A DNA stretch of 64,000 nt from an uncultured Verrucomicrobiota bacterium (GTDB taxonomy: Bacteria > Verrucomicrobiota > Kiritimatiellia > RFP12 > UBA3636): assembly GCA_937911295.1 (NCBI GenBank), contig CALDQE010000073.1:22352-86351 (forward strand), given 5' to 3'. Below, piece by piece: positions 5,015-59,113 of this stretch. Under the pieces are notes generated by a model. That model saw only the letters and a program-made list of their open reading frames with translations, ran no database searches and was not told the DNA's origin. The position numbers were made by a program, and so were the translations under genes. Each line of letters starts with the position of its first letter. Within the stretch, counting starts at the first letter, position 1.

Positions 5015-5022
5015 AATAAACC

Positions 5023-5820: not shown

Positions 5821-6104
5821 AATTTTACATTCTAACTTTGTTTTTCCATTTATTATATAGCATAAAGCCACAAAATAGCAATATTTATCATAAAATTGAA
5901 CATTTCGTAGCTACTTAATAAATGGCAATTATCACTCAATCATCTATTGTCACATATTCTATAGAAGAGACTGCAGAGACTTATGTGACAACTAAAATTG
6001 GGCATCTTTCTAATGTGAGGGTGATGAACAGCTTAAATAAGCCAGCAACCTCGCTTCTCAAAATTTGTCTAACAATTTAAATTGCATTCAAAATCCATTT
6101 AGTA

Positions 6105-25314: not shown

Positions 25315-25764
25315 AAATTAACACTTTTTTAAATCGTCATGTACAATTGTCTAAGTTAATAGACGCAAATTCAAAATATACTTTAATTTTACACTAAAAC
25401 ACTTACAAAAAACAAGATAAATTACTAGAATATCGATGCAAACGCAGAATAAAAGCAAAGTCTATTCTCACATCATATTTTTTATTTTTCAACTTAAACG
25501 TCCTAAAACAGACTGATGCTACGGGGGCAAAAGCTAATAATGAGTACGATAAGTGCTATTACACCTATTACCGCTTGATTATATATTAGAAAAGAGCGTA
25601 ATGCTTCCTCTTTAAATTCATACCTTAGGTCAAACATCTCCTTGCAGCTCTTCCCCATACAAAAAAACATTCACCTCAGCTCAGCTTCAAATAATTTTTC
25701 TCTACTAAACTATTTATGTAGTGTGCAAGCAATAGCTTCTAGCACACACACTTACCACCACACA

Positions 25765-27855
25765 CTACCACCAGCTGCTCTTTTTACCATTACGCCACGT
25801 AGAATATCTCCCTTGCTGATACCTACTTGAAGAATATCCTCCTGATGACCCATAATAACCTCTTGAGTTTTGCTTCAGTTTTGTGTCCTGCGATATTCCC
25901 GTCCATTTATACAGCTTTTTATCTAACTCTGATATAAAGCAGGATACATTCAGCATTTCTAATGCCCCATTGTAGTTCTGCTTATAGGATGGCGAACACA
26001 AATATAAACGCTCCTTAGCCCGCGTCACTACTACATAAAATAATCGACGCTCCTCAGGAATATTTGTCTCCTCAATCTTCACAGAAGGAAACATTGTTTC
26101 ACTCAACCACGGAACTATAACTACTGGCCACTCTAACCCCTTAGCTTGATGAATGGTACTTAATAATACTGAATTAGTTTCTCCATTCATCTCAGCATCT
26201 TCAGATAATTCAGAATTAGTCAATATTGCAACATCAGCAAGAAAATCAGATAATGTATCCTTCTTCTCTATTGCCTTTGCCAATTCAAATATATCCTGTC
26301 GACGCTCATCCGCATTATTAAAATTCTTTTTTAATAATTCAAAATAAAAGGCATCCAATAAATCACTAACAAAACCACTCTCTCTTGCTGGGCCTTTTTC
26401 CTGCTGAAAATAATTTGTATAGGCTTTCAATATGCCATCAGTGGCTGCCTTTGCTTTTGCTGGTATTATAGACAAAAGCTTTTCCCTCTGTGCTGGTGCT
26501 GATGGATTAAATTGATCCCCCAACTTATTCCATAGCTTACTTATCGTTGTTTCACCGACTCCTGGCAATAATCCAAAGCCGCGAGTAAATGCCAAATAAT
26601 CAGTTGGGGACACTATCATTCTATAAAATGCAATTATATCCTTAGCATGAGCGGAATCAAAAAAACCTGTACCTGAGGTTATATTATACGGAATTCTTGA
26701 ACGTGCAAGATTTAGCTGAATATCAATTGAATGAAAATGTGATCGATACAAAATTGCTATATCCTTATAAGAATAGCCCTCCAGTAAACAAGAATTTATT
26801 GTGTCAACAATGTACGAAGATTGATCTGTATCTCTATACACTCTGTGTAGTATTGGCTTGGCAAAATTGCCTTTTTTTGTTGGGCGAAGCTCTTTCTGAA
26901 ATTGATCAATATTGTGCCTAATACAATCATTTGCTAGCTGTAATATTTCTGGCGAGCTTCGATAATTCTGCTCAAGCTTCACAATTTTTGCATCAGGATA
27001 TTTTTTAGGAAAATCCATTATATTTCTAAAATCTGAGCCACGCCAAGAATAAATACACTGAAAATCATCACCAACCACAGTTATATTTCTATGCTTCTCT
27101 GCAAGTATATTTACAAATTCAGATTGCAACATATTTGTGTCTTGATACTCGTCCACCAAAATATGCTTAAACCGATTCTGATAATAGGTACGAACATCCT
27201 CATTTTCACGCAATAGCTTTAATGCATTAACAAGAATATCATCAAAATCCATTGCACCTAACTCGCGTTTTCTTTCAATATATTTATTTGCCACACGAAT
27301 AATATTAGGTGTGTCCGCTACAGATATATCTGTATGATTTGCATCTAAATATGAAGAAAAATTTATACCTTTATTAACAGATGTGCTTAAATGGCTTAAA
27401 ATTACTTCACGCTTTGTAAATTCCTTTTTTTGAAATCCCAAGTCAGTAATACAATTTCCCATCAGCGTTTTTTGATCATCAGAATCTAGAATAGTAAAAT
27501 CTCTATTATAGCCAATCTGCTGAGCATTAATTCTTAGCATTCTATTAGCTATACTATGAAATGTGCCTCCCCACATTCTATAAGTTGAACCTGGAAGCAC
27601 TTCCTCCACTCGCTCTAGCATTTCTCTTGCTGCCTTATTTGTAAAGGTCAACAAAAGAAGGTCCTCTTGCCTAAACCCACGCTCTAACAGATTCACTACC
27701 CTATATACCAGAGTACGTGTTTTTCCGGTACCCGCAGCTGCCAGTACAAGCAATGGTCCATCAGGAGCTGTTGCTGCTTCATATTGTTCATTATTAAGTA
27801 GTGTTGATAAATCTGTCATAATATAGTAAAAAGGATATTTGAAATCTAAAACCAC
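25765..27855 (-). CDS. UvrD/PcrA/Rep-family ATP-dependent DNA helicase with a Gly/Ser/Tyr-rich C-terminal tail.
   Basis: Seen: Walker A AAAGTGKT, helicase motifs (VDEYQDTN, QNYRS), C-terminal GYYGSSGGYSSSRYQQGRY. The start may be the ATG at ~27819. Confidence 0.8.
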   Translation of the reverse strand: MVLDFKYPFYYIMTDLSTLLNNEQYEAATAPDGPLLVLAAAGTGKTRTLVYRVVNLLERGFRQEDLLLLTFTNKAAREMLERVEEVLPGSTYRMWGGTFHSIANRMLRINAQQIGYNRDFTILDSDDQKTLMGNCITDLGFQKKEFTKREVILSHLSTSVNKGINFSSYLDANHTDISVADTPNIIRVANKYIERKRELGAMDFDDILVNALKLLRENEDVRTYYQNRFKHILVDEYQDTNMLQSEFVNILAEKHRNITVVGDDFQCIYSWRGSDFRNIMDFPKKYPDAKIVKLEQNYRSSPEILQLANDCIRHNIDQFQKELRPTKKGNFAKPILHRVYRDTDQSSYIVDTINSCLLEGYSYKDIAILYRSHFHSIDIQLNLARSRIPYNITSGTGFFDSAHAKDIIAFYRMIVSPTDYLAFTRGFGLLPGVGETTISKLWNKLGDQFNPSAPAQREKLLSIIPAKAKAATDGILKAYTNYFQQEKGPARESGFVSDLLDAFYFELLKKNFNNADERRQDIFELAKAIEKKDTLSDFLADVAILTNSELSEDAEMNGETNSVLLSTIHQAKGLEWPVVIVPWLSETMFPSVKIEETNIPEERRLFYVVVTRAKERLYLCSPSYKQNYNGALEMLNVSCFISELDKKLYKWTGISQDTKLKQNSRGYYGSSGGYSSSRYQQGRYSTWRNGKKSSWW

Positions 27856-27918
27856 GCAATAGTTAAACCTATTTAAATATTGCGTGGTATATTTAACAAA
27901 TTTTGTGCTAGCAACAAA

Positions 27919-29313
27919 TTATTTTTTCAACCAAATATCAGTTGTTGTATCTAGCTCTTTATTTGCATTCTTTAAACGCTCAGAAAGCATTGATGGTGAA
28001 TTTGCAAAGCAAGGATCAATTTCAATCTTAATAGTTGGATAACCATTCTCATCAAATGGAACCTTAACACCAGCCTTCTCTAGCCACCAAGCCCACTTGC
28101 GGGATAAATCTGCCTTGCAGGTAGCAGGTGAATCAGCTCCCTCAGCATTCTTTACTGGAGAAAACTCTAGTGTTCTATCAAAAGCTAGATTTACACTAAC
28201 CTTTGCATCCATCAATGCATCAAAAATAAATTTTTCAAACTTAAATGCATTTGGTGCAGCTGGCTTTACTGTCTCACCTGCCTCATTGACAAATGGGACC
28301 TTCTTATGAGCTACATGGATTGGTAAGCCTGCACGTGCTTCACGTACAAGAAAATCTACTGAGAACATATGAATTGCGACACTACCAAATTTATAGCGAA
28401 GCTCACCATCCTCAGTGCGCTCATTTTTCTGCTCTGGTGTAAATTCTGTATATTCAACAATTTGAGATTTACCATCGCGAACCACTACAACACCCAAGCC
28501 CTCATTTGGGTCACGCTTTGCACATACCTTAATAGAAATTTCAGACATATTACGTGTATGATAACCAATAAATGCTGGATCACAAATCTCTACCATTGGA
28601 TTATCTACCTGGAAATAGAAAATAGAAGTTAGACCACGCTTCTGAATGTCAGCTAATGCACCACTCTTTTCAAGTGCAAGCAATGTGCCGCCATGTCCAT
28701 CAGGACTCATAAAAATATGGTCCTTAGCATCCATCACAATTTTACCTTCAGGTGTTAGGGCAGGCCACATTGATTGAACAAAGAAAAATACATTTTCTTT
28801 CTTTAAGCCAAAATAATTATTTGCTGCAAAGAATTCGCGAGTGGCAGCATCATTTCCTTGGCTTGTCATAATATAAAAAGGTACCGTTGTATTCCATTCC
28901 TGCTCTAGTGCAAGAATTTTTCTTGAATGAAAATAAAATAAAGATTCATCACTCATTGGGCCGACAGGATAGCAACCCTTTGGTCCATCATAGCCAAGTC
29001 GAGTACCTTGACCTCCTGCAACCATAAGCACACCCACCTTGCCACTACGTAGCTCAAGAGTGCCGGTGCGATATGCTGCATCATAATGCTCTCCCTTCAG
29101 CTCAGCAACAGGTGCAGGAATCATTTCACCTGTTGAGCCACCCTCTAATTTTGCTGAAAGCAAATTTCTTGTCATATTTATAGAATTAAAATCTAATGTA
29201 TTTATTTGAGCGAGAAGAGCTTCTTGTTGTGAGCTCTCCAGCTGGTCCCAAAAATTTAAAACATGAGCCTGATCATTTGCTTCTAATAGAGCCTTTGCTT
29301 CTTCAAAATTCAT
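27919..29313 (-). CDS. UDP-sugar pyrophosphorylase of the eukaryotic-type UDPGP/UAP1 family.
   Basis: Seen: LMVAGGQGTRLGYDGPKG nucleotide-binding loop characteristic of the UDPGP (PF01704) family. Confidence 0.6.
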   Translation of the reverse strand: MNFEEAKALLEANDQAHVLNFWDQLESSQQEALLAQINTLDFNSINMTRNLLSAKLEGGSTGEMIPAPVAELKGEHYDAAYRTGTLELRSGKVGVLMVAGGQGTRLGYDGPKGCYPVGPMSDESLFYFHSRKILALEQEWNTTVPFYIMTSQGNDAATREFFAANNYFGLKKENVFFFVQSMWPALTPEGKIVMDAKDHIFMSPDGHGGTLLALEKSGALADIQKRGLTSIFYFQVDNPMVEICDPAFIGYHTRNMSEISIKVCAKRDPNEGLGVVVVRDGKSQIVEYTEFTPEQKNERTEDGELRYKFGSVAIHMFSVDFLVREARAGLPIHVAHKKVPFVNEAGETVKPAAPNAFKFEKFIFDALMDAKVSVNLAFDRTLEFSPVKNAEGADSPATCKADLSRKWAWWLEKAGVKVPFDENGYPTIKIEIDPCFANSPSMLSERLKNANKELDTTTDIWLKK

Positions 29314-29619
29314 AATATTTCCTCCATTTAAAGTAAAACAACAACATATTTACGCCATTTTCCAAAAATTATATCAAAAACAAAATTATGGTGCAACACC
29401 TATCAGGTGCATCTGAAATTTTGGTGAAAAGACAAACTAAATGTAAGGCCCTTTTGCGTTTGGTGTTACAAGGGCAATTAGACGGCGAGATGCTTGACGT
29501 TAGACGGTTTGACGATAAAATCTCTAAAAGTGAAAAGATTAACGACCTTAATCTTTCAACGTCTGATTGTCTAGCGTCTATGTCATACTAAAATGCTTTC
29601 GCAAATAGAGTGCCCCGTG

Positions 29620-30441
29620 TTAAGCTCCAAAGACAACATCAAGTAGCATCATTACAAGGAAGCCAACAAGAATGCTTAGTGTTGCATCATGGTCATGATG
29701 TTGTGCATTCGCATGTGCTTCTGGAATCAACTCTTCAACAACTACATACATCATTGCACCCGCTGCAAATGCAAGCAACCATGGCATAATCGGAAGTATC
29801 CAAGCAGAAATAAGCACAACACCAATACCAAATATTGGTTCAACTATTCCAGAAAGTGCTCCCCATGCAAATGCCTTACGTTTGCTCAAACCCTCCTTGT
29901 AGAGAGGCAAGGAAACTGCTGCTCCCTCCGGAAAGTTCTGTAAACCCATTCCTATAGCCAGTGCAAATGCCCCTGCATAATTACCTGCGACTTCCCCTCC
30001 AATTTGTTGTGCTGCTACTGCATAAGATAAACCAACAGCCATCCCCTCTGGAATATTGTGAAGTGTTACCGCAAACATTAAAAGTGTTGAACGCTTAAAG
30101 CTTGATGGCAAGCCCTCTAACTCATTCTCCTCTGGGTGAAGATGTGGAAGAAGCTTGTCCAACAATAACATAAATGCAATACCTATCGCAAAACCTCCAA
30201 CTGCTGGAAGCCAACCCAATGCCTTACCAAAGCTCTCTTCCCCTGCCTCCAATGCAGGAATAAGCAATGACCAAACCGATGCCGCTATCATCACGCCTGC
30301 TGCAAAACCTAAAAATATTGTCTGACTTCTTGAGCTACGCTTCGGAAAAAGAAAAACCATTGCTGCCCCTGCAGCAGTCATCAAAAATACAAAGCCAGTG
30401 CCAATACAAGTTTTTATTAATGCATCTATCATAAAATTCAC
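29620..30441 (-). CDS. zupT: ZIP-family divalent metal transporter.
   Basis: Seen: HNIPEGMAVG and QNFPEGAAV ZIP signature helices. Confidence 0.8.
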   Translation of the reverse strand: MNFMIDALIKTCIGTGFVFLMTAAGAAMVFLFPKRSSRSQTIFLGFAAGVMIAASVWSLLIPALEAGEESFGKALGWLPAVGGFAIGIAFMLLLDKLLPHLHPEENELEGLPSSFKRSTLLMFAVTLHNIPEGMAVGLSYAVAAQQIGGEVAGNYAGAFALAIGMGLQNFPEGAAVSLPLYKEGLSKRKAFAWGALSGIVEPIFGIGVVLISAWILPIMPWLLAFAAGAMMYVVVEELIPEAHANAQHHDHDATLSILVGFLVMMLLDVVFGA

Positions 30442-30449
30442 TTTTTAGA

Positions 30450-31574
30450 TTAGTTACCCTTCTTAATTAAATATACACCTAAACCTAAACAAATAAATAT
30501 TGGGAATAAAACAATAATATGTGCAAATTGGCTTAAATGTTCAACAAGAGAATTTGCTAAAATAATGAATAAATAAAAACTTAATCCAACTCCTAAACTT
30601 AATACAAGGCCAAACCACGTCTCTTTTCTATGCTGCTGAATTCCTAGCGGCGTACCTATCAATACAAAGCACACACAAGCAAGTGCTAAAGTAATACGGC
30701 TATATATTTCAACACGAGACCGGCAAATATTTTTTAGCTTTCCCTTGTCTGTACTAGGGAATAATTCAAAAAGCTCAATATCTGCGGCTAGCTGCCATGA
30801 TGGCTTATCCTTTGGTCGGCGTGTAGGTGCCTTATTCCTTCTTTTTTCATCCTTAAAAAATAATTTAAAAGGCATACTCTTTGCGGTAACACTTGTCATA
30901 TCCTTTGTGTCTTCAGCAGAGAAGGTTTTTATCACTACATCATTCAAATCAATATGTAGAACACTATTGTTTTCCTCAGAGGTCATAATAGCAGTGCTTG
31001 CTGTTAGCTCTCGATATGAATTGCTATCATTATCCATTGGCTCAACAATGCGCACATCTGTTAAATGATTCTTATTACGCTTCTTTACAAAAATAGAAAT
31101 ACCTGTACCAAATTTTTCATTTGTTATGGTTTTACCTGGCTCAATTAGTGCAGCGACCTCATTTACACCTATAGCATTTCTACTAAGCTTTCGTGAATAT
31201 GAGCTCTCTGGAGAAATTGTATTGTTTATATATAAACAGCAAACCGAAAGAAATAGTGCTATCAATAGTGGCATACGCATAATATCAAATAGACTGACAC
31301 CACATGCACGCATTGCCATAATTTCACTATCTGAAGAAAGCTTACCAAATACAAGCAACGAGCTAACAAGCAATGCAAAAGGAATTGTCCAAGATAGTGT
31401 ATAAGGAAATCCTCCTAAAATAAATTTCAACACAATCTCAGCAGAAGCACCACGTGAAATTAAATTTACAGCTTTAAAAATCAATCCTATTGACAAAATA
31501 AAGCTTAAAACAACTAGTGCCATAAAGAAGGTGACTAAAAATTGTTTAGAAATATATTTATGGAGGGTATTCAT
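30450..31574 (-). CDS. LptF/LptG-family (YjgP/YjgQ) LPS-export permease.
   Basis: Seen: N-terminal block YI.KQFL.TFF..L.VL plus 6-TM architecture with a periplasmic beta-jellyroll insert. Confidence 0.65.
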   Translation of the reverse strand: MNTLHKYISKQFLVTFFMALVVLSFILSIGLIFKAVNLISRGASAEIVLKFILGGFPYTLSWTIPFALLVSSLLVFGKLSSDSEIMAMRACGVSLFDIMRMPLLIALFLSVCCLYINNTISPESSYSRKLSRNAIGVNEVAALIEPGKTITNEKFGTGISIFVKKRNKNHLTDVRIVEPMDNDSNSYRELTASTAIMTSEENNSVLHIDLNDVVIKTFSAEDTKDMTSVTAKSMPFKLFFKDEKRRNKAPTRRPKDKPSWQLAADIELFELFPSTDKGKLKNICRSRVEIYSRITLALACVCFVLIGTPLGIQQHRKETWFGLVLSLGVGLSFYLFIILANSLVEHLSQFAHIIVLFPIFICLGLGVYLIKKGN

Positions 31575-31680
31575 TTGTTATTATTATGAATAAAAAAGGC
31601 GGTGGCACATATTTCAGCACCCCGCCAATCAAGTTTTAAAGTTTATTCAGTTTTAATAATTGCTGAATAATGCAGGTAGA

Positions 31681-33285
31681 CTATTTAGTAGGGTTTGTAT
31701 ATTTCTCTTTACCATTGATACCAGTAATATAAACCTCAACGCGACGATTCTCTAGGTTGCCATTCACCGGATCATTTTCTACCTTTGGATGTCTAAAGCC
31801 ATAGCCAACATATTTTAGACTTTGAGCAGGAACACCCCTAGCAATTAGGTAATCATATACAGCCTTAGCACGGCTAGTAGAAAGCTTTTCATTATGGCTG
31901 CGGCTAGACTTTGCACGCTTATCTGCATGACCTTCAATAATAGCTGTTGAACCTGGATTATCAAGCATAGCCTTTGCTACCTTATCGATTTGGGCAAAGA
32001 ATTCTGGCTTGATAATAGAAGCATCTGTATCAAAGTTAATCTTTAGCTCAAACATAAGAACATCATCGCTCTTTACTAGAGGCTCTGTCTGGTCATAAAT
32101 GACCTCATGACCATCGCGAACACCACCCTTATCAGTATCTGGGTCACGTGGATTTGTCTTATAATCAATTACCTCAGCACCGTCAGAAAGGAAATCCCAA
32201 TCTGAGTCTGGATTTAAAGGGTCTGTATTATGCTTTTTAACTTCCTCACCATCTGTTAGACCATCATTATCTGAATCCTTAACTAGAGGGTATGTTTGGT
32301 GAGTGAAAACCTCTTCACCATCCTTTAGACCATCGCCATCAGTATCTGGGTTATTAGGATCTGTCTCAGTTTTAATAACCTCTTCACCATCTGTTAAGCC
32401 ATCGCCATCAGTATCTTTGTTTAGAGGATTTGTTCTATACTTTTTAACTTCATCACCATCGATTAAGCCATCGCCATCTGTATCAGCAACAAGAGGATTT
32501 GTTTTATACTTTAGCACTTCCTCGCCATCTGTTAGGCCATCATTATCTGAATCTGGGTCATTAGGATCTGTTTTGTAGATATCCATTTCATCGATATCTG
32601 ATAGACCATCGCCATCGGAATCTGTCAAAAGTGAGAATGTTGGGTCTTGAGCAATCTTATCTGCACCCCAGCGCCATACAACGCCGACATCAGCTGTCAT
32701 ATTAAATTCTGTATTATAACCAGCTAGGTTAATACGAGCATCAGCACGTAGGCTCCATGTGTCGCTTAGGTGATACATGATACCGCCACCGCCACGAATA
32801 GTCATGCTTGTAGCACCATCGCCAGTGATATCTTCGCCATAGAGGGTAACACCTGCACCAAAGGTTAGATATGGGTCAAGGCGCTCTAGACGAGTAAAGT
32901 GGAACAATGCATCTACATAGAATTGAGCCATATAAGTGCTATCAAAGTATTTATCTCCCTTAGAGTATGAATTACCTTGAGGCATATCAATCCAGTTGCC
33001 ATTTTCGTCTTTACCAACATTACCACCAATATTTTCATCTAGAGACGGAGCGAAGATAACACTGCCTTCAATGGTCCACCACTCATTATATTCATATCCT
33101 AGACGACCAGTAATGAACATACCATCCTTAAGACCTTCATCTCCTTCAAAGTTGGCAAAACCGATACCAGGGCTAAAATACCATTTACCAAACTCTTTTT
33201 CTTCTTGAACATCTGCATTATCAGCAAATGCTGGCATAGCTAGCATAGCTGTGAGAGCTATGAATGATAAAGCTAACTTTTTCAC
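31681..33285 (-). CDS. OmpA-family outer-membrane protein with ~10 thrombospondin type-3 calcium-binding repeats between the N-terminal barrel and the C-terminal OmpA domain.
   Basis: Seen: signal peptide, repeated D.D.DGL.DG.E(V) units (aa ~200-390, nt ~32100-32690), and C-terminal OmpA motifs (GHAD...NRRVEV). Confidence 0.75.
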
Positions 33286-33629
33286 TAATTATTCCTCCGA
33301 AATGATTCGAATTGTTTGTGTTAATATATGTTTCAATTTAATTTCAACTTAGATGTAATTTATTTTAACATATTATTATAAAAACATTCAAGAAAAAGTT
33401 TAAATTTGGGCAATATTCAGGGGTGTAGCTGTGTTTTTTTCATATTCAGTCTCAAATATAGCATTTGAATACTAATCCAGATTGTGTAATGGCTAAAAGT
33501 ACGAGATTGAACTCGTAAATAACAAATGTAATCCAAACTTCATTGTTGAACCAAATTATGTTGACTCAAAAAATTTGGTTTGATATTCTTAAAATAGTTT
33601 TTTACTTAATCAAAAAAAGGCTATATTCT

Positions 33630-34289
33630 ATGAAAATTCAACCTAATCAAAAATTCTTGCTTATTGGTGACTCTGTAACTGATATGGGACGAGCCCAACC
33701 CATTGGACAAGGTCTATTTAACCCACATGGAACAGGTTATCCAAATGTTGTACATGGTCTATTAACTAGTGTTTACCCAGATTATTTTATAAATGTAGTC
33801 AATATGGGCATAAGTGGAAATAATGTCACAAATCTTGAGGAGCGTTGGGAGCGTGATGTTATTGCACAAAAACCTGATTGGGTTTCTATTATGATTGGTA
33901 TAAATGATGTATGGCGCCAATTTGATGTTCCTCAGCTACCTAATAATGCCGTACCTCCTGAGCTATTTCGTTCAACACTTACAAAATTAGTTCAGCAGAC
34001 AAAACCTTTGGTAAAAGGTTTGATCCTAATGACACCTGTATATTGGGAAAGTAACAAGCAAGATGCTATGGCAGCTCGTGTAGCAGAGTACCAGCAAATC
34101 ATTAAGGAAATTGCTGAAGCAGAGGATGTCATTTTCTGTGATGCACAAGCCTATGCTGATAGAGTATTACAGCATTGTCATTCCTGTTACATAACATGGG
34201 ATAGAGTCCATCCAAATATTCCTGGTGCTAATATTCTTGCACATGCATTATTGGATACAATAGAATTTGATTGGAACCGCAAGTGTTAA
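33630..34289 (+). CDS. SGNH/GDSL hydrolase-family esterase.
   Basis: Seen: FLLIGDSVTD (catalytic Ser block), GISGN, C-terminal DRVHP. The ATG at 33630 carries an AAAAAGG RBS. One of only three plus-strand genes. Confidence 0.65.
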   Translation: MKIQPNQKFLLIGDSVTDMGRAQPIGQGLFNPHGTGYPNVVHGLLTSVYPDYFINVVNMGISGNNVTNLEERWERDVIAQKPDWVSIMIGINDVWRQFDVPQLPNNAVPPELFRSTLTKLVQQTKPLVKGLILMTPVYWESNKQDAMAARVAEYQQIIKEIAEAEDVIFCDAQAYADRVLQHCHSCYITWDRVHPNIPGANILAHALLDTIEFDWNRKC

Positions 34290-34580
34290 TCACTAACGCT
34301 CCAGCCCTTAGTGAAATGAGGAGCACACGGAGTGTGATTTCCTGGTGAAAGTTTCTTTGTGAGGTTGGGGACAGAGCCCCAACCCTACGATATAATATTT
34401 CTTTACCACTGAGGGTGGGGAAGCCGCCCGGTGTTTTTGGGGCGAGCGGTGCACTAGCCTGCAATAGCAAAGCAGTGCGCCGTCTAGCTTACGACTTTGG
34501 TGCGACAGCACTCGCCTGCCGTACGCGGAAATTATAATAGCATAAGTGTATTTAAATCATCCGTGTAGGGCATCCGTGTT
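34290..34580. other. GC-rich structured intergenic island, a candidate small RNA of unknown class, with ACACGGAG and two CATCCGTGT copies.
   Basis: Seen: perfect hairpin GGTTGGGG-acagag-CCCCAACC (34363-34384). Further stems (CGCCC...GGGCG, CTGC...GCAG). Composition clearly GC-richer than the flanks. Lies in a convergent 3'/3' gap. Confidence 0.25.
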
Positions 34581-35680: not shown

Positions 35681-36982
35681 TTAATTTGTTAATACGGTCT
35701 CATCAAGTAAAAATTTTTCAATCCCAATATACAAAATTCCATATTCATCGTACCATGGAATAATATCATCCTTTATTACAACAATTTTCTTAAATGAATC
35801 TGGTATTCTTTTTAACGAATTTATCTCTTGTTGTCTTTTTTCTTCATTTGCTACTGATAATGCAGATTGTATATAATATCTTTGATTACCTGAATTAGCT
35901 ATAAAATCTATTTCAAATTGAGTACGTTGACTTCTGTTCAGATGGTCTTTATAATTATATTCTACAATTCCAACATCAACATCGAATCCCCTAACGATTA
36001 ATTCATTATAAATAATATTTTCCATTATATGGTTTTCTTCTGTTTGCCTGAAATTTATTAAAGCATTTCTAAGTCCTATATCTGAAAAATAATACTTAAT
36101 TGGAGTATGAATATATTTTTTTCCTTTCACATCATATCGATTTGCTTTATTTAAAATAAATGCATCAATAAAATAATCTATGTATAAAGAAATTGTGGAA
36201 GGTGATATCTCTAATTTTTTCTCACTTTTGAAGGTGTTAGATAGTTTGTTAGGATTTGTAAGTGAGCCTATATTTGATGCTAAAATATTAAGAATATCTT
36301 CTAAGACTTCTTTATTACCTCTTAATTTGCATCTTTCTATTACATCACTAATGTAAGTCTGTGAAAATAAGTTTTTTAAATATTTACTTTTTTCTTGATG
36401 AGTTGTTAACGATAAAAGGAATGGCATTCCACCATAGACGAAATACTGATTCCAACAATCCTTTTTATCTCCTTGATACGCATCACAAAATTCTTTATAT
36501 GTTAACGGATTTACTTTTATTTCATCACTTCTCCCCTTAAATTCTGTTAAAATATCGGTAGAAAGCATTTTAGAATTGCTTCCTGTGACATAAATATCTA
36601 CATTCTGCAATTTCATAAGCCCTAAAAGAACGGGAACAAAACCAATTTTATCTTCAGCATTTAGAATATACGGATTCTGTGTTTCAACGACGAGCTGGAC
36701 TTCATCAATAAACACATACAATTTTTCTCCGTTTTTTGAGACCTTTTCTCTTATGAATTTATCTAATTCAAATGGATTTCTATATTTTATATTAGAAACA
36801 TCATCTAATGAAATTTTTACAATATTTTCATCTAAAATTCCAATAGAATTTAGGTATTCATTATATAATTCAAACAATAGAATTGATTTTCCACATCTAC
36901 GTATACCAGTTATAACTTTAATAAGACCATTATCTTTTTTAGAAATCAGTTTATCTAGATACAAATTTCTTTTAAACAGCAT
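35681..36982 (-). CDS. AAA+ ATPase of the COG1373 family (AAA_14 plus DUF4143 domain). The gene is markedly AT-rich.
   Basis: Seen: Walker A GIRRCGKS, Walker B VFIDEVQ, and a C-terminal DUF4143-like region. GC content is visibly lower than in neighbouring genes. Confidence 0.65.
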   Translation of the reverse strand: MLFKRNLYLDKLISKKDNGLIKVITGIRRCGKSILLFELYNEYLNSIGILDENIVKISLDDVSNIKYRNPFELDKFIREKVSKNGEKLYVFIDEVQLVVETQNPYILNAEDKIGFVPVLLGLMKLQNVDIYVTGSNSKMLSTDILTEFKGRSDEIKVNPLTYKEFCDAYQGDKKDCWNQYFVYGGMPFLLSLTTHQEKSKYLKNLFSQTYISDVIERCKLRGNKEVLEDILNILASNIGSLTNPNKLSNTFKSEKKLEISPSTISLYIDYFIDAFILNKANRYDVKGKKYIHTPIKYYFSDIGLRNALINFRQTEENHIMENIIYNELIVRGFDVDVGIVEYNYKDHLNRSQRTQFEIDFIANSGNQRYYIQSALSVANEEKRQQEINSLKRIPDSFKKIVVIKDDIIPWYDEYGILYIGIEKFLLDETVLTN

Positions 36983-36996
36983 AATAAATCTCCTTA

Positions 36997-37104
36997 TATT
37001 TTTGCGTATATACGCATTTTTTCACTTATTACCTAAATTTATATCATTATTTTCTTTTTGTGTCAACCTTCTATTTAAAATTTTTGCGTATATACGCAAT
37101 TTTA
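36997..37104. promoter_or_regulatory. Two copies of a 22-bp element, TTTTTGCGTATATACGCA(T/A)TTT, each containing the perfect palindrome GCGTATATACGC. They lie upstream of the AAA+ ATPase gene.
   Basis: Seen directly at 37004-37015 and 37086-37097. Confidence 0.35.
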
Positions 37105-37307
37105 TAAGATAATATATTTTGGGTGATTGTTTCTTAAGTATCAAAGAGACACATCTACCATTTTCGCTGCGAAATCCTGCAACCATTCAATAGAAATGAA
37201 CTTCTCTAGCTTTCCTTCTGACGCAAACAAAAATGTAGCCGCATTTTTTGACTTGGAATAATTAGTGCTCTCCTTGCTGTTTATAAAACTAATGCAATAT
37301 TTAGGAC

Positions 37308-37341
37308 AAAAAAACGTCCACTATTTGTTGGACGCTTTTTT
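37308..37341. terminator. Rho-independent (bidirectional) terminator downstream of the aspC stop.
   Basis: Seen: A7 run, CGTCCA-ctatttgt-TGGACG stem, T6 run. Confidence 0.6.
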
Positions 37342-37345
37342 ATTG

Positions 37346-38509
37346 TTATCGCTTAATTGAATCGCAGAATTCCTTGAAGCGACGCATGCCCTCTTCAATT
37401 TCTTCTAAGCTACAAGCATAGCTAAAGCGAAGATTATCCCGTGAACCAAAGGAAACACCTGGCACTGCAGCAACATGCTTCTCTTCTATGAGCTTTGCTG
37501 CAAAGTCACGTGACTTCATTCCAAAGGCAGAAATGTTAGGGAACATATAGAATGCACCCATTGGACGCTGACATACAATTCCATCAATCTGAGAGAGTAG
37601 CTCATACATACGTAGGTTGCGCTCCTCAAATGCCTTTAGCATAGGCTGAATTGCCTCTTCGCCATTTTCTAATGCTTCAATAGCTGCACATTGAGCAAAG
37701 GTTGTTGGAGCAGATGCTAGATGGCTCTGAACTGTTGACATTGCCTTAATAATCTCGAGCGGACCAGCTGCATAGCCAAGGCGCCAACCTGTCATTGCGT
37801 AGGCCTTTGATAAACCATTGATGGTAATGGTGCGATCGTAGAAATCTGAAGAGAGAGAAGCGATGCTTATGTGCTTTGTGCCACCATAAACCATGCGTTC
37901 ATACATTTCATCGGAAACAATCCATACATTATGCTTTACACAAACCTCACCAAATGCACGTAACTCATCCTCTGAATATACAAGCCCTGTTGGGTTAGAT
38001 GGACTATTAAGAACAAATGCTTTTGTCTTTGGTGTAATTGCTGCTTCCAGCATTTCCGGTGTTAATTTAAAGCCCTTTGAATCTTCTCCCTTAACAAATA
38101 CAGGCACACCACCAGCAAGGCGAACCATCTCTGGATAGCTTAACCAATAAGGCGAAGGTATTATTACTTCATCACCTGGATTTAACAATGCAATAAAAGC
38201 CATTGTTAAGGATTGCTTACCACCGGAGCTTATTATTACTTGATTTGCGGTATACTCAAGAGAATTTGCTCTCTTAAGCTTTCGGGCTACAGCCTCACAC
38301 AAATCTGGTAAGCCTTTTGCAGCAGTATATTTTGTTTTACCAGCATGTAATGCATCAATACATGCATTTGTGATGCATTCCGGTGTCGCAAAATCTGGCT
38401 CACCAGCAGCAAAATTGCAGACATGATAGCCTTCTGCGGCTAGTTGCTTTGCCTTTGCGGAAATCGCAAGGGTAGCAGATGGTTGAATTTCTTCTAAGGT
38501 CTTATTCAT
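37346..38509 (-). CDS. aspC: Aspartate/aromatic aminotransferase, class I.
   Basis: Seen: class-I aminotransferase blocks (GEPDF, SGGKQ, NPSNPTG, SKAYAMTGWRLGY). The ATG at 38507-38509 overlaps the ndk stop. Confidence 0.8.
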   Translation of the reverse strand: MNKTLEEIQPSATLAISAKAKQLAAEGYHVCNFAAGEPDFATPECITNACIDALHAGKTKYTAAKGLPDLCEAVARKLKRANSLEYTANQVIISSGGKQSLTMAFIALLNPGDEVIIPSPYWLSYPEMVRLAGGVPVFVKGEDSKGFKLTPEMLEAAITPKTKAFVLNSPSNPTGLVYSEDELRAFGEVCVKHNVWIVSDEMYERMVYGGTKHISIASLSSDFYDRTITINGLSKAYAMTGWRLGYAAGPLEIIKAMSTVQSHLASAPTTFAQCAAIEALENGEEAIQPMLKAFEERNLRMYELLSQIDGIVCQRPMGAFYMFPNISAFGMKSRDFAAKLIEEKHVAAVPGVSFGSRDNLRFSYACSLEEIEEGMRRFKEFCDSIKR

Positions 38510-39650
38510 AGCAATATTTTCTAATGAAAGGAGACATATTGTCGCCCAAAATATCAATAATCTTCATTTCACGCTTTGCGTTTTCTGGAGAGTCCGAAGC
38601 GTGAGCTGCATTTACCATAATATTTGTACCAAACTCGCGGCGAACAGAGCCTGGGCGAGCCTTGTTAGGATCTGTTGCACCTAGAATATCACGAATCTTT
38701 GATACTGCATTCTCACCCTCATAAATCAAGCCTAGGCACTCAGCACCAGCACGTAAGTGCTTCTCCTTCTCTGGAACTACAGAAGGACGATAAGCAGTCA
38801 TAAACTCTACAATATCCTCAAATTGTGTTTGTGCAAAGGTTGGAGCAATCTGCTCGCAGAGAGATTTTGCAGCTTCTTCTGGAACAGGGAAGCCAAGCTC
38901 TGCACTAACTGCTTTTGCCACTCTGCCAGCACCAAATAGAGGGAATTTTTCGGTTAGTGAATCAACTACTGGTCCATAAAATTCTTCTGCTTGAGCAACT
39001 GTCATAGAGAACTTCTTAATTGCAACAATGCGCAAGCCAGAGGATGAAAGCAAGTCAATGATATTACCAGCACGTAGAGATGGGCGCTGGAAGTTATCTG
39101 GCTTAAGCATAACAAGTGTACGCTCTTGATTGTGTGTATTGATTAGACCAGAGTCTGTAGCAATATGATCTGCAATCAAGCGAAGTGTCCTATGAACAAA
39201 TTCCTTTGTTGGACCAACCAAAACTGCTGGCTCAAAATATGTTACATTCCCATTTTCATCGGTAATGTAGTCACCAAAGGTTTCACGAACAGTTTGACCG
39301 CAACCCCAGCGAAGTGTCACAGAGCCAGTACACTCCCAAATCTTTTTAATTGCATCCTCTCCCTCAAATAGTAGTAGCATACAGCGGTGAGGACGACCAG
39401 TTGGCTTATTAGGAGCATACTCCTTCATCACATAATCAGCGATAAGCTGATTGATTTTCTCTTCGCCTTCAGGTGCCTCGCGATCTAAAACACATTCTGC
39501 ATAGCCCTTTGCTAACTCCATGCTTGGACCAAACATGCGAGCAGAGACTAGACGCAAATCTGTTCTACTCAAATAACGAGCTATAACGCCGCCCAGACGT
39601 GATTTTCTAATTGTATAAGGATTAATTAGTACGTATGCTATTTCTTTCAT
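38502..39650 (-). CDS. ndk: Nucleoside diphosphate kinase with a duplicated domain: an N-terminal degenerate NDK-like domain plus a C-terminal catalytic NDK domain.
   Basis: Seen: ERTLVMLKPDNFQ and the active-site block NAAHASDS in the C-terminal half. The N-terminal half has an NDK-like start (IAYVLINPYTIRKSRLGG) but lacks the His motif. Confidence 0.6.
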   Translation of the reverse strand: MKEIAYVLINPYTIRKSRLGGVIARYLSRTDLRLVSARMFGPSMELAKGYAECVLDREAPEGEEKINQLIADYVMKEYAPNKPTGRPHRCMLLLFEGEDAIKKIWECTGSVTLRWGCGQTVRETFGDYITDENGNVTYFEPAVLVGPTKEFVHRTLRLIADHIATDSGLINTHNQERTLVMLKPDNFQRPSLRAGNIIDLLSSSGLRIVAIKKFSMTVAQAEEFYGPVVDSLTEKFPLFGAGRVAKAVSAELGFPVPEEAAKSLCEQIAPTFAQTQFEDIVEFMTAYRPSVVPEKEKHLRAGAECLGLIYEGENAVSKIRDILGATDPNKARPGSVRREFGTNIMVNAAHASDSPENAKREMKIIDILGDNMSPFIRKYCYE

Positions 39651-44587: not shown

Positions 44588-47500
44588 TTACTTACCAATT
44601 ACCTCTGAGGTTGAATTTGAGTGAATTACCTCAAACTCTTGGCAATCAACAGTTACATCAATCTTGAAGAAGCCTGTTGACCAATCATCAATTAGTGCCT
44701 CGTCTGGACGCATAATTGCTGTACCAGCCTCTAGCTTGCCATTGATTACCATTGGTGGAGCAACCTTCAATGTATCTACTACCTGCCAATCCTTTGCACC
44801 GAGCTCTGCTTTGTACTTTAGATAGTAGGTAATCTCATTACCAGCAACTACTGCTGGATATGGACACTGAACAAATGGCTTGCCATTCTCGTCAAACTCA
44901 ACTGCAAGTGTTGCATATGGAGTTGACTCATCAGCTGCCTTTGGATTGCTGCCTGATAGGAATTCCTCTAGGTCACTTACACCATCGCCGTCAGTATCCC
45001 AGCTATGTGTATTTGTGAAGGTTAGGTTAATCTCTGCTGCATCTGACAATCCATCACTATCGGTATCAACCATTGTTGGATCTGAGTCAAGAGCACCATC
45101 AGCATACTCCTGCCAAATATAGATACCATTACGGTAATCACGACCAGAGTACTTATTGATATCACCAAACATCTGGTATTCCCATGAATCTGGTAGAATA
45201 TCATTATCTGTATCCTTATCAAAGATTACGATATTTGCATTTAGAGCATCTGCACTACCATTTACTGTATTTGGTAGTACGATTGGCTCAATTGCTTCGT
45301 AAACAATTGGACCAGATAGAGGAGCACCTAATGTAGCAAAGCCCTCTGACTCCCATGTATCACAGAAACCATTATTGTTGCTATCAATGAATGCACGAAC
45401 TACATATTTGCCTCTAGACATACCAACTAATGAATATGTACCCTTAGTTGTTGCCTTCATACGTGCAGCCAATGTTCCACCAATACCATTTGCATGGTTA
45501 GATGATTCTGGAACAACATATGACTCTACAATAATTGGAGCCTTAGTAAAGCTCTTCTTATACATATTTAGTTTTGCACCAGCTGCAAGTGGCTGCTGCC
45601 AACGAATTTCAAACTTACCTGTGTCATAGTAAATCTTACCAAAACCAGGATTTTCATTTGAATCGCCCTTTAGCACTCCATCAGAGAAAGTATCGCGGAT
45701 TGTATCAATTACATCACCTGCTGCATTTACAACAGAGAATGAAATTGTTCCAGGATTGATAGCTCCGATTTCTCCACTAGCTACAAGTGAAGTACCATCA
45801 GCTGTCATAATATTGCTTGATGTACCTTCATTATGAACCTTACCAAAGTAAGTAATTGTGCCATTTACTGAGTAATTCATACGAGGTGTACCCTCATTAT
45901 TAACAGTAAATTCACCAGAAACTGACTGTGGCTTAATACCTGTACCATTAATATACTCTGTAATAGTATATGTATAGGTATCATCTGGAAGTAGGAAGAA
46001 CTTACCTTGTCCGCCCTCTAGCTGAGGGAAGGTTGAATAGTACATATCAACATCTTCTAAATCACCATGACGTACTGGTAATAGAATAACATCATTATAT
46101 ACTGTTGCTCCAGCACTATTCTTGATAACAATCTTAGCACCCTGATTGCGATGATCCATCTGCCACTTGAATTCAACAAGTGCACCATTCATCTCTTCAA
46201 CTGGAGCAATGATTGCCATCTTACGGCGATTATTTACACCTAGGTTCCACTCAAGCATACCTTCGTGTATCATTTCATCACCAGCCCATACTTCGTATTC
46301 AATAAATGGAGAAGTGCTTGTTCCAAATGGAATACCCTTTAGACCTGCATTAATAATATCACCCTCATGCAACCATGTACGTGGAGCACGAATCTTGATT
46401 GTATCACTATCACCTGTTGGGTTAATAATTACTACCTCATACTCATCAGCTGTTACTGTTGGAGCATTTGTAGAATCAACATTACCCCATGAAATACGAG
46501 GATAACCCCACAAATCATCAGTCATAGCAATCTCAACATTTGCACCATTTACACTGATTAGTGTTGGGCGCTGTGTTGATAGACCACATGGCTCACCTGC
46601 ATCATACTTATAGTCTGAATTCAAGTCCAAGAAACCAAAGAAACGGTTATTTCCAGAACGTAGGTGTCTACCCTCTGTCAATGCTGGCATTACATCAGAC
46701 TTAGTGAATGGGAAGGAATATGTATATGAGTAGTCAAGTGAAACAGTCTGACCTACCAAAATTCCTCCGATAGAACCATCAATAATTACACCAGAAACAT
46801 AATCAATATAGAAGTTTGTTCCTTCAAATTGACCCTGGTTTTCATTGATTGGAGATTCACCAACTGTTGTTAATACACCAGGAACTGGTATTCCTTCCTC
46901 ATTAACTGTTGGAGGTGTCATATATGTCAAACGTGCTGTACCAGCCTTAATCATTGTATTTGGAAGTACACCCTGACGATCCTCACCAACCTGAACAAGT
47001 ACGCTCAATAGGTTAGGTAAATCTGTCCATAGACCATCTAGTTTACCACCCATATCCTTACCAGCATGCTTTTCGCTGAAGGAATGAACTGTAATGCATG
47101 GTACATCCACAATATCTCCATTGTAATGGAATGTGAATGTAATATTTGGCATTGGGAAGGATAGAGTATCATTTGCTCTAGTACCAGCAATGTACTCCTC
47201 GATATTTGTCCAACCATCTGCATCCTTATCTTCATGAGCATCGAACTTATCTGCATCGAGACCATTATCCAATTCCCATGCTGATGGCATACCATCACCA
47301 TCATCATACATATCACCATAGGTTAGGCTCTGCTCTGTATCACGCTCAAAGTAATCAGAAATGCCATCACCATCTGTGTCTGCACTATTTGCAGAAGTAC
47401 CAGCTAGATATTCAGCATAGTTGTCTAGGCCATCACCATCCAAATCACCAAATGCACCGTCATCGCCATCTGCTGAATATGGATCCATACCCATTAGAAT

Positions 47501-50500
47501 TTCATAGTAATCTGGGATACCATCACCATCTGAATCAAGTGATGATACATCATAACCAACACCATTACCATCCCATAGCTCTGTATCAAAATCAGCTACT
47601 GCTCCACCTAGTGGAACCAAATCTGAGAAGAATGGAATTAATTCATAATTTCTAGATCCGTATAGAGAACCACTAAAGAAATCCAATGAAATTTCATATT
47701 GTGGCTCCAAGCCTGTACGATATACCTGAGCATATGGATTTGCTGAATTGTTAATCAATCTTGGATCAATTAGCTCATCAAGATTAATTTCTGATGGATC
47801 CACGATCTCTAGTTCATAAACAGCACCCATTGTTGCGTAAAGAACATAATCCTCTTCTTTACGAACTCTATAACCAAGCAATTTATATTCCTGATCAAAT
47901 ACTGCTAAGAAGCGGCGAGATGACAATGGTGGATATTGCGGAACATGAGCCGCTAGGTTTTCTGCAAGTGGTATATAGCCAAGATCTCCATCGTATACTG
48001 ATGACTTGACTAATGAACTTGCCCACCAAGGAATTTGATAGCCAGTAGGTACGCCCATACGCTCACCAATTCCTAGTGGAACCTGCTGGATATCTGTTGG
48101 ATATACAATAGAATCATCTTTACGTGTAGAATCAATAATTACATCAGGTAGATTATTGAAATTGTAGTAGTAAAGAAGCTTTTGTGGGAAATCTGCTATA
48201 GCTGTAGCATATGGGAATTTATTTTCCTCCTCCCATGCAAATCGAGCATGATTAATTGCATATACCTCATCAAGTGTAAAGCTCTTCTGATATGCTGCCT
48301 GAATTTCTGCTGCTGAACGAACACGGTCCCAAACGCGAACCTCGTCAATCCAACCATGGAAGAAATCTGATAGCACTGGCTCTGCCCAATTTGGTGCTAA
48401 TGCTCCTGCCATATAGTAAATTGGTGAAGTACCAATCTTACCATCTGGATTCTCTTCAGATGCACCAAGTACAATTGGTGCAGGATAGTAATCAAAACTA
48501 TCAAGATATGAGATAGAAGGTTGTGCAGAACCTACTGCATTTGTAACAACCAAATCCTGAGTTCCAGGGAAGTAACCGGTGCATGGCTTTAAGTCACAAG
48601 CAACTGTCTTGATTAGTGCACCATTTAGATATAGGTTAAACTTATTGTTAACTGAATCTAATGATACTGCTACATGATACCATGTATCCTTAGCAATTAA
48701 GCCATTCTCTATAGAAGTTTCAGTAGAGAATGTTGCCATTGCATCATTCTGGAATTCAGCACGTATTGTTCCTTCTGGTGTTAGCTGAATGCGGAAGGTA
48801 CGGCGAATTGCTGTCTCAATTGTACCAGTCTGGTCATCAATTGGCATACGAACTGGGCGCTCGATAAGTGTCTGATCCTTACCAGAAGCTGGATTTTCAG
48901 ACTTAAACCATAGCTCTACAGTGTATGCTGCCATAGCCCATTTATCATGGAAGAATGGAATACGTGTGCGCATTGCAGAATCAATACCATCAAGGTAAAT
49001 TGCCTTACGGGAGTGAGGATCTGTTGGATCCTTATTATCTGACAATCCACGTAGGTCTGTTGTTAAGCATTCCTCACGATCATTGATATTATCATTATCT
49101 GTATCAAGACCCTCATTTATTTCAAAATCCCATATATATTGTGGTGCTACAAATGATGGCTGTGGTGCTTCTTCTGCATTTGCCGCATACTTTGCTAACC
49201 ATGGCCAAAATGATAGCTCTGGCAACAAATTATTAGGGAATGCTGGATGCTCTTTGTCTGGTAGAATAGTTGTATATTCACCATAAGCATAGTAAAGATT
49301 TACATGGCTTTGATTGTAAGAAGTATCCGTAATCCAATATGGTGTTGGATCTGTATCAGGATAGATATCCTGACCATATACCTCAATTGATTCCTCACGG
49401 TTATTCAATCCATCTTGATCAACATCAGCATATGGAGAGCCAATGCTCCATGGCTTTGTTTCTGATAGGTATGGATATGAATAACTAGCTATTGGAATCA
49501 TTGTTCCATAGAAGAAACGACCAAATGGATCACTCTTACCCCAAATTGGATTCAAACCATGGAATATCTCCCAGTAATCATCCATACCATCACCATCAGA
49601 ATCTGGTGACATAGGATCTGTTGTTGTCAATACTGTATGGAAATATAATGGTTTTGGAGCAATCTCCTTATCAATCAAAAATGCAGGATCCCAATTATAT
49701 GGATTCTGACCATAACAACGCTGTAGCTCGTTAATTGAATGAGTTAATCCCTCACCAAAATCTGGATTTGAGCTACCATAATGCTTTGAATATACATAAT
49801 AATAAACCAAACCAAAATCTGGAATTGGGAAAATTTCTAGAAGAGCTGATATTACAACTAACTCATCATTGAATGTCTTAATTGTGATATCTGGATTTGC
49901 AGCTACAAATTCAGTATAGAATTGCTCATAAATATCTCCATAAGCTGCTGCTGCTGACATAGCCAATACCGGATCAACTCTTGGGCGAATAATATCAAAT
50001 GCATAACGATCGCCATATCCAAACCATTCTAGATTATCTGGATTAAAGAATGGGTCTGTTAGCATATCAAGATGATTCTTAGCAATCATAAGCTGTGGCT
50101 GCCAAGCATAGTTAGCACCAGTTAGATATTCCTGGTAGTTTGCAAGACCATCACAATCAGGGTCACCATATGGCCCACCCTGACCCATTGGATCATATCC
50201 AAATTTGTTTAGACCATAGATAACCTCCCAGCCATCTGGTAGATTATCAAGATCTGTATCAACACTGTTTGGATCATAGTTTGTTATTTCTGTTGCACCC
50301 TCTTCACCAAACTCTAAACCATCCATCAATCCATCATAATCACTATCTGGATTCCATGGATTTGTTGAACTTGTACGCTCAGTCCAGCCCTTAGAAACGT
50401 CTGGAGTATAGATAACTACTGTATTGGCTGCTGTGCCGATTAGATTATTACGTGCATCGTAAACATCTGTTACTTCAACAACTGCCGTTGGTGAATTACC

Positions 50501-59110: not shown

Positions 59111-59113
59111 AAA

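Follow-up and report, generated by a model that had tools for sequence, protein, structure and literature searches.

The locus and its single gene

The stretch analyzed here (“the window”) is 64,000 nucleotides from an uncultured Verrucomicrobiota bacterium of the Kiritimatiellia (contig CALDQE010000073.1, positions 22,352 to 86,351), and our subject is one minus-strand gene within it, encoding a 433-residue ATPase, together with two copies of a short palindrome that precede it. The protein combines the Pfam domains AAA_14 (93.2 bits, cut-off 27; residues 21-166) and DUF4143 (66.1 bits, cut-off 28.1; residues 221-372), in that order. An earlier, sequence-only reading had taken it for a poorly characterized stand-alone COG1373 ATPase of a suspected defense family, and this was borne out: the gene is a full-length member of the PADLOC candidate family PDC-S01, model PDLC04787 matching residues 2-428 on profile positions 10-409 of 412 (E 2.1e-105) and five other PDC-S01 models matching more weakly. 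The segment that was inserted at this locus (see below) contains, by the open reading frame (ORF) list and a blastn comparison, this one ORF on the minus strand and no partner gene.

There are two copies, and no more, of the 12-bp palindrome GCGTATATACGC in the 64 kb (37004-37015 and 37086-37097), against 0.01 copies expected by shuffling (two copies in 0 of 100 shuffles). The palindrome forms the center of a 24-nt repeat unit (36998-37021 and 37080-37103) whose copies are 96% identical and 82 nt apart, and which contains a 14-bp dyad; the distal dyad extends further, into a 16-bp palindrome (37084-37099). The palindromes do not flank the gene, as had been proposed: both copies are upstream of the start codon, with dyad centers about 27 and 109 nt before the ATG. 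Between them is a putative sigma-70-type promoter, with TTGACA at 37061-37066, the −10 hexamer TATAAA at 37038-37043, and the TG of an extended −10 at 37045-37046; it was read from the sequence, a pattern scan demanding T at the last −10 position having passed over TATAAA. The features are collected in Table 1.

Table 1. Features of the ATPase locus, in window coordinates.
Feature	Coordinates	Strand	Basis or remark
ATPase coding sequence	35681-36982	minus	433 aa, AAA_14 + DUF4143; PADLOC candidate PDC-S01 member
Nucleotide-binding domain (residues 21-166)	36485..36922	minus	Pfam AAA_14
Winged-helix domain (residues 224-300)	36083..36313	minus	Three helices and a beta wing in the model
PD-(D/E)XK-fold domain (residues 316-426)	35705..36037	minus	Model topology, column counts, paralogue alignment
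Shine-Dalgarno (SD) sequence AAGGAG	36990..36995	minus	7 nt before ATG; read from sequence
Proximal 14-bp dyad TGCGTATATACGCA	37003..37016	.	Between −10 element and SD; whole unit including A-tracts 36998-37022; homologous position in 43 loci
Putative sigma-70-type promoter, TTGACA-17 nt-TATAAA with TGn extension	37038..37066	minus	Read from sequence; 11/12 match
Distal 14-bp dyad TGCGTATATACGCA	37085..37098	.	Upstream of −35, 82 nt from proximal copy
Degenerate third copy (AAGTCAAAAAATGCGG..., gene strand)	37231..37254	minus	Left flank and half-site only; repeat-family search
Segment present in window, absent from sister genome	35550..37307	minus	Acquired cassette and non-conserved flanks, 1,758 nt; blastn
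aspC terminator hairpin	37315..37334	.	Ends conserved host sequence, outside cassette; conserved in sister genome

Absence from a sister genome

Composition was the first ground on which horizontal acquisition had been suggested. As stated then, the GC content of the ATPase gene (0.266) is below that of both neighbors, aspC (0.422) and a transporter gene (0.348); it is the lowest among the 43 window ORFs that encode 150 aa or more (mean 0.378, sd 0.035, z = −3.2). The codon side of the comparison is different: GC at third codon positions is third lowest only (0.173, z = −1.9), and synonymous codon choice is host-like (rank 31 of 43). Because synonymous codon choice is ordinary for the genome, the low GC reflects mostly an amino-acid composition rich in I, L, K, and N, and it is weak evidence: composition alone would not prove transfer.

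A sister genome, Kiritimatiellae metagenome-assembled genome (MAG) RGIG4692 from roe-deer rectum, was found by scanning species-representative genomes with the neighboring aspC. Its CstA, nucleoside diphosphate kinase (NDK), and aspC proteins are 99, 98, and 97% identical to those of the window, and its nucleotide sequence is 93.2% identical over 6,066 bp (blastn) up to position 37308, just past the aspC terminator, where the similarity stops, to be picked up again, at 82% identity, at 35549 inside the transporter gene. The site between is empty in the sister genome, with 58 nt against 1,758 nt in the window; the ATPase gene and the palindromes are both absent from that genome, and in more distant Kiritimatiellae and relatives (aspC 53-58% identical) the gene was not found adjoining aspC. 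Exact copies of the protein occur on metagenome contigs matching the window at 99.99-100%, and homologues 97-100% identical are confined to the same species, including a 98%-identical partial protein labeled Kiritimatiellae; beyond the species, identity to the nearest relatives does not exceed 72%, and those with a name are Clostridia, Clostridiales, and Spirochaetes MAGs. The empty site and the location of the nearest homologues in other phyla together support gain of the cassette by horizontal transfer, as the sequence-only reading had suspected. For the source genome, the result illustrates cleanly how a single gene can be inserted into a housekeeping locus.

A mobile or defense-island context, which that reading described as frequent for such ATPases, does not fit the window, in which the genes around the ATPase are housekeeping genes (CstA, NDK, aspC, transporter, GDSL lipase, OmpA). 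The cassette is chromosomal here and present in single copy, with no other mobile-element genes alongside.

The surroundings of the insertion vary in other ways. On the 3′ side of the transporter, the sister genome (L085, 7312-13089) has an ABC transporter ATPase, a HAD hydrolase, a solute-binding protein, and an O-methyltransferase, in place of which the window (25681-34579) has GDSL lipase, OmpA, and LptF/G genes; the transporter itself is only 82% identical to its counterpart, vs. 93% upstream, and the whole junction is therefore a variable region. A contig from the same species (L002, 1-1054) is 100% identical to the window up to the aspC 5′ end (window 38587), beyond which it carries DUF218 and KduI-like genes, not NDK and CstA: this could be a strain rearrangement or an assembly chimera.

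Two further items belong to the inserted segment. The degenerate third copy of the repeat, which precedes the proximal site by 227 nt, may be left over from an earlier duplication or from the donor context. A 54-aa ORF (37022-37186, minus strand), called by gene finders in same-species contigs, is probably not a gene, since it overlaps the promoter and the distal dyad, is low-complexity AT-driven sequence, and is not conserved in any other locus.

Twin dyads at homologous loci

Eighty homologous loci (47-69% identity) were fetched from metagenomes, and their upstream regions aligned at the start codon. The same or a variant palindrome is found in many of them, about 30-37 and 105-112 nt before the ATG. 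With repeats defined by identity at 16 or more of 20 positions, the copies being 50-110 nt apart, and with dinucleotide shuffles as the null, 40 of 75 loci have a duplicated 20-mer upstream (shuffle mean 12.8), and p ≤ 0.01 was reached in 42 of the 75; the copies are 73-78 nt apart in 33 of the 40, with the window's 82 nt at the long end. The unit has a recognizable anatomy: an A-tract, a 14-bp dyad whose ends are usually TG....CA, and a second A-tract, often with about 10 further matching bases that include a pseudo-SD in the distal copy. The two A-tracts are on the same strand, and the unit is therefore directional.

At least four phyla, including that of the window, have this architecture. 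Named genomes include a Clostridia MAG, with TGCGTATATCCGCA twice, Prevotella nigrescens DSM 13386, with CGCGTATTTACGCA and TGCGTTTTTACGCA 76 nt apart, and a Spirochaetes MAG, with copies 75 nt apart. The cores vary among loci (TGCGTA.., TGCGGA.., TGCCGT.., TGTGCA.., TGCATC.., GGTGT.., TGTGAC.., TGGCAC.., TGGTAC.., and TGGAC..), yet remain palindromic, and both copies at one locus agree. Among close relatives, DNA similarity is limited to the stretch from the distal dyad through the stop codon, with none beyond either end, which defines the cassette as running between those two points; at one locus (L013), the terminator of the upstream gene abuts the distal dyad.

Two loci depart from this symmetry: in the region some 30-120 nt before the ATPase in L005 and L050, the dyad is asymmetric, and the distal core is the mirror image of the proximal one, e.g., TGCAGCAATACGCA vs. 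TGCGTATTGCTGCA; the A-tract flanks keep their direction there, which gives the promoter region a larger-scale symmetry.

Wide occurrence of the palindrome as a generic repeat had been named in advance as a point that would tell against an operator. It is indeed widespread, but solely at this position before homologues: in 166 fetched loci (about 1.5 Mb), the exact 14-mer TGCGTATATACGCA is found only at these two positions. Occurrence that is wide but position-bound strengthens the operator reading, and recurrence of the same architecture before homologues, with covarying dyads, supports the sequence-only proposal of (putative) dimeric operator sites. A chance or generic genomic repeat without function would find some encouragement in the AT-richness of the region and in the commonness of short intergenic palindromes, but with two copies against 0.01 expected, an arrangement recurring at dozens of independent loci, and a 14-mer confined to these positions, that account is already refuted, and we give it a negligible likelihood. 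No mention of a twin-operator promoter was found in the literature searched on PDC-S01 and COG1373.

Promoter geometry and the level at which the dyads are read

A clear proximal dyad is present at 43 loci, and at 24 of these there is a sigma-70 match of at least 10/12 between the copies, with 11-26 nt (mode 14-16) separating the end of its −10 element from the proximal dyad. Another six have the motif TAnnTTTG, which we take to be the −7 promoter element of Bacteroidota and whose end is 11-18 nt from the dyad. The proximal site would thus be in the first ~30 nt of the predicted transcript, and the distal site centered ~60 bp upstream of the predicted transcription start; the constant spacing is a consequence of promoter geometry, not of helical phasing. 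Retention of the operator position even where the type of promoter has changed is strong evidence that the dyad pair acts as a transcriptional control element.

Such an element could also be read as RNA, with the repeats forming either a 5′ untranslated stem-loop affecting stability or translation, or weak terminators of an antisense transcript. Some features are what one would expect of this: the proximal copy is predicted to span transcript positions +15 to +28 or so, with 10-15 nt between it and the SD, its stem is kept through compensatory changes, and the plus strand reads T-run, hairpin, T-run, so that a terminator scan flags both units. The U-run of an intrinsic terminator is, however, present solely on the plus strand, where no gene ends or needs termination, the predicted hairpins are weak (−5.1 and −6.0 kcal/mol), an Rfam search gave no match, and the distal copy, upstream of the −35 element, is outside the predicted transcript.

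The symmetry of the dyads themselves is more telling. Among 36 distinct 14-mers, Watson-Crick symmetry at distances 2-7 from the center is seen in 27, 28, 34, 34, 33, and 24, against column-shuffle nulls of 14.5, 10.6, 18.6, 13.9, 21.2, and 17.0 (P ≤ 0.0012 at each distance). This per-distance test was used instead of counting fully symmetric centers, which were set aside as proof of DNA-level reading: in AT-rich centers they often arise by chance. Pairing two bases from the center (27 of 36 vs. 14.5 expected) is impossible in a hairpin, and G:T mismatches are not favored over A:C; with the weak hairpins and the position of the distal copy, these observations argue for a symmetric protein dimer reading the dyads on double-stranded DNA, and make the RNA alternative rather improbable. 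Symmetry, bracketing of a promoter, and conservation with the gene are among the properties expected of an autoregulatory operator pair, and these three are found here.

Protein fold and an altered nuclease motif

An AlphaFold2 model from a 104-sequence alignment (pLDDT 94.8, pTM 0.93) replaced a first one built from 21 close homologues (pLDDT 62, Foldseek TM about 0.2). It has four parts: a nucleotide-binding domain (1-170), a helical domain (173-217), a winged helix (224-300), and an alpha-beta-beta-beta-alpha-beta domain (316-426). The first three form the nucleotide-binding–helical–winged-helix module that characterizes STAND proteins, and match structures of NB-ARC, CED-4, and Orc1/Cdc6; Foldseek matches of the model also include MalT, Apaf-1, Avs5, and the nuclease-fold protein VC1899, and Can2 and Card1 were matched with the low-confidence first model. 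Walker A (G26-IRRC-G31-K32-S33) and Walker B (LYVFID93-E94) are intact, with G26, G31, K32, and D93 invariant or nearly so in 103 sequences. By Pfam and the model, a C-terminal repeat sensor (TPR, WD40, or LRR) is absent, the protein ending at residue 433 in the nuclease-fold domain. Searches of PDB sequences, NCBIfam, and PHROGs gave no results.

The statement that the gene has no partner nuclease passes over the fact that DUF4143 itself is listed in the PD-(D/E)XK superfamily (PMC3424549). The core elements of that fold can be assigned in the model (helix, H; strand, E) as H316-330, E334-345, E351-364, E367-374, H380-391, and E398-403, and E321, E357, D359, Y370, and Q372 are conserved in 88-100 of 103 representatives. 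The active-site motif is altered: D359 is kept, but the canonical (D/E)xK position reads Q372-S-A374. Glutamine is found at 372 in 99 of the 103, and in window-clade members of the alignment there is no lysine at +2, the six commonest residues being A, T, V, C, S, and L. Two canonical paralogues, present by chance among the fetched loci, read EVDFV...IPIEAK (L035) and EADAV...ALIEFK (L032) in this region. By this alignment, the window clade has lost the predicted catalytic Glu and Lys.

What may bind the dyads

From these observations we infer the binder, the sign of the regulation, and the cellular role of the protein as follows. The best explanation, and on balance a probable one, is a horizontally acquired, self-contained, autorepressed single-gene cassette, consisting of the distal dyad, a sigma-70 promoter, the proximal dyad, a ribosome-binding site, and the gene for the 433-aa ATPase, in which an Orc/STAND-like module is joined to the nuclease-fold domain with the altered motif. 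The A-tract-flanked 14-bp palindromes would be operators, bound on double-stranded DNA by a symmetric dimer, and the most economical binder would be the cassette's own product, repressing its own promoter; repression would keep the protein scarce until its nucleotide state changes or titration removes it. A defense role, if real, would then be borne by a single autoregulated protein.

The gene product is suggested as binder, and a host factor appears unlikely, because the cassette holds nothing else, its hosts span four phyla, the cores change from locus to locus while the copies within one stay matched, and two paralogous cassettes on a single contig (L039) carry different dyads, TGCGTAAATACGCA vs. 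one of TACTG-N8-CAGTA type. The alternative is a host-encoded regulator, such as a global repressor or a CRP/FNR-type dimer: the 5-4-5 geometry of the dyads is generic for helix-turn-helix dimers, one locus (L026) carries TTGATTCAGATCAA, which we take to be the FNR consensus TTGAT-N4-ATCAA, and covariation of the winged helix's recognition helix with the operators was not seen. It would not readily explain why the element accompanies the gene across at least four phyla, why the core varies between loci but not within them, how one contig can have two cassettes with different dyads, or why the exact 14-mer is nowhere else in 64 kb of host genome or 1.5 Mb of fetched loci, and we consider it quite unlikely.

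Several points nevertheless weigh against the autorepressed cassette. The winged helix of STAND proteins is usually regulatory rather than a reader of DNA, and covariation of its recognition helix with operator class was not visible by eye. The top column of a mutual-information scan was residue 343 (z 8.6), which belongs to the nuclease-fold domain and its beta1-beta2 hairpin; this is a hint of covariation with the operator, but the position is outside the winged helix, and the scan is confounded by shared ancestry. About 35 of the 75 loci are without a recognizable distal copy, so that two sites are not obligatory; several loci are near-duplicates, and the independent lineages number about 30, not 40. 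The sites used in the symmetry test were picked by a dyad finder that favors long arms. Whether the indel is a gain here or a loss in the sister genome is judged from two genomes and the phyletic pattern only, and two genomes cannot strictly polarize it. As for function, the candidate defense role comes from PADLOC guilt-by-embedding alone, the context in the window being housekeeping, and the change of ExK to Q-S-A may leave the protein unable to cut DNA.

Type II restriction enzymes read palindromes as dimers, and one possibility is that the nuclease-fold domain, having lost catalysis, has been retained as a dimeric reader of the 14-bp palindrome, with binding switched by the ATPase module. 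We rate this as unlikely, but its consequences would be considerable: the protein would be a minimal Orc/STAND-like, ATP-gated DNA-binding protein with its own promoter as sole conserved target, a self-reporting sensor or initiator-like protein instead of a nuclease, and PDC-S01 hits in surveys would need a different interpretation.

Relatives, neighborhoods, and mobility

The family is large: a search of 1.84 billion cluster representatives gave 11,638 relatives with E ≤ 1e-3 and 1,008 with E ≤ 1e-30. Among 2.9 million viral contigs, by contrast in number, the search gave just two relatives of the gene, and two 19-mer matches there, away from any homologue, are consistent with chance; 17 phage records and 220 plasmid records have a relative, the latter mostly below 35% identity. 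Among 144 ORFs flanking homologues, the recurring families are other PDC-S01 (6), HTH_3 (6), resolvase/recombinase (3-4), PDC-S02 (3), PDC-S04 (3), Fic (3), type I methylase (2-3), and HipA (2). The survey of neighborhoods proposed in the sequence-only reading thus did turn up some defense, toxin-antitoxin, and recombinase genes, but most neighbors are ordinary, and the counts come without a background rate, so that no enrichment is claimed. The neighborhoods are compatible with a loosely defense- or mobile-associated solo gene.

Paralogous AAA_14/DUF4143 pairs with different upstream dyads are found close together at L039/L040 (1528-2829, plus strand, and 4756-6018, minus strand), and another such pair with different dyads at L046 (3989-5302 and 5565-6740). 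The Prevotella nigrescens DSM 13386 locus is a 2,630-bp circular record labeled as a plasmid (NZ_CP133466.1), carrying a 44%-identical ATPase with twin operators and a gene with a “TaqI-like C-terminal specificity domain,” with no replication gene annotated. A replication role deduced from this circle was rejected: there are no supporting features, and it may be an excised circle or an assembly product.

The repeats could alternatively serve an initiator or mobility function, as sites for Orc1/Cdc6- or Rep-like binding or for moving the cassette. The Prevotella circle, which contains nothing beyond the ATPase gene and a restriction-modification gene fragment, the 220 plasmid records, and the AT-rich stretch bracketed by repeats directly upstream of the gene would all be in keeping with this. 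Most of the plasmid relatives are, however, less than 35% identical, and the circle, which may have arisen in assembly, is without a known replication gene; at most loci a well-placed promoter is found in the AT-rich stretch, and the spacing follows promoter geometry. In the window, the gene is a chromosomal single copy with no other mobile-element genes, and both repeats are on one side of it and therefore not element ends. We regard an initiator or mobility role as very unlikely.

Other features of the window

Some other genes in the window have unusual features of their own. The NDK-like protein (38502-39650, minus strand) has 382 aa, about twice the length of the NDK model (135 positions), which it matches in two separate stretches, and it is conserved at 57-75% in related Kiritimatiellae, Verrucomicrobia, and Lentisphaerota MAGs. 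A 2,945-aa ORF (44588-53425, minus strand) with PKD, Laminin_G_3, and faint TSP3 repeats presumably encodes a giant surface protein. Adjacent ORFs of 171 and 366 aa (58595-60214, minus strand; GC 0.30), with no Pfam match, form the second-lowest GC patch in the window, between genes for an S1-domain protein and a GDSL lipase, near dnaN.

Comparison with known systems

The ATPase gene is a new member of a catalogued, uncharacterized family, whose regulatory architecture we have not found described. PDC families were proposed by guilt-by-embedding in known systems, most without a phage test (bioRxiv 10.1101/2024.01.29.577857; PMC12988326), and a phage-protection result for PDC-S01 was not found in the literature searched; surveys nonetheless report PDC-S01 as the fourth most common defense system in bacteria and archaea (PMC12988326) and, for rumen genomes, as the single locus met most often (PMC13356809). 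Like PDC-S01, the window gene is a single gene encoding an ATPase and PD-(D/E)XK-fold domain pair (PMC12988326). Unlike the catalogue entry, which consists of profile hidden Markov models only, its clade has Q-S-A in place of ExK and a conserved twin-operator promoter. What appears to go beyond the catalogue is, first, a family-wide putative twin-operator promoter with covarying specificity and, second, the replacement of the nuclease motif. Molecular handles on the family are thereby available for the first time: the conserved 14-bp dyad pair provides a defined candidate DNA ligand, the varying cores provide a natural specificity series, and the existence of a large clade without the catalytic lysine advises caution in counting every PDC-S01 match as a nuclease-based immune gene.

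Canonical AAA_14/DUF4143 proteins share the same Pfam pair, and D359 of the E-x-D strand is invariant in the alignment, but canonical members (L035 and L032) keep Glu and Lys where the window clade has Q372 and A374, and in these two cases the upstream regions are without the A-tract–dyad pair. Upstream of one of them (L032, 5500-5695) there is instead a direct repeat, ATTGCAAAT-N-GTCAA, present twice about 45 nt apart, with each copy followed by a TATAAT-like hexamer; other subfamilies may have repeat-based control of their own.

The nucleotide-binding–helical–winged-helix module is also shared with the archaeal ATPases PABY2304 (PDB 2qen) and SSO1545 (PDB 2fna), of the Pfam family ATPase_2, to which the window protein has a weak match. 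These differ in that identity is 19% and the match covers the N-terminal 263 of 433 residues, not the C-terminal nuclease-fold domain; a function for them is named neither in the depositors' titles nor in the literature found. Among the STAND NTPases (NB-ARC NLRs, CED-4/Apaf-1, MalT, and Avs), from which the window protein differs in its 433-aa length and the lack of a repeat-type sensor domain, its nuclease-fold domain is distinctive in being C-terminal and without the catalytic lysine. In Avs proteins, a module of this type is coupled to a nuclease effector; MalT acts as a transcription factor of the STAND class.

The closest likeness in promoter organization is to bracketing-operator systems such as those of gal/lac, plasmid Rep, and restriction-modification controller genes: in these as in the window there are two dyads, the first preceding the −35 element and the second within the initially transcribed sequence, with constant spacing and sites located before the gene of the regulator (in the window, the presumed one). 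Two differences set the window cassette apart from them: its unit is directional, with A-tracts on the same strand, and its presumed regulator would be an AAA+/STAND-like ATPase with a nuclease fold, rather than a small helix-turn-helix protein.

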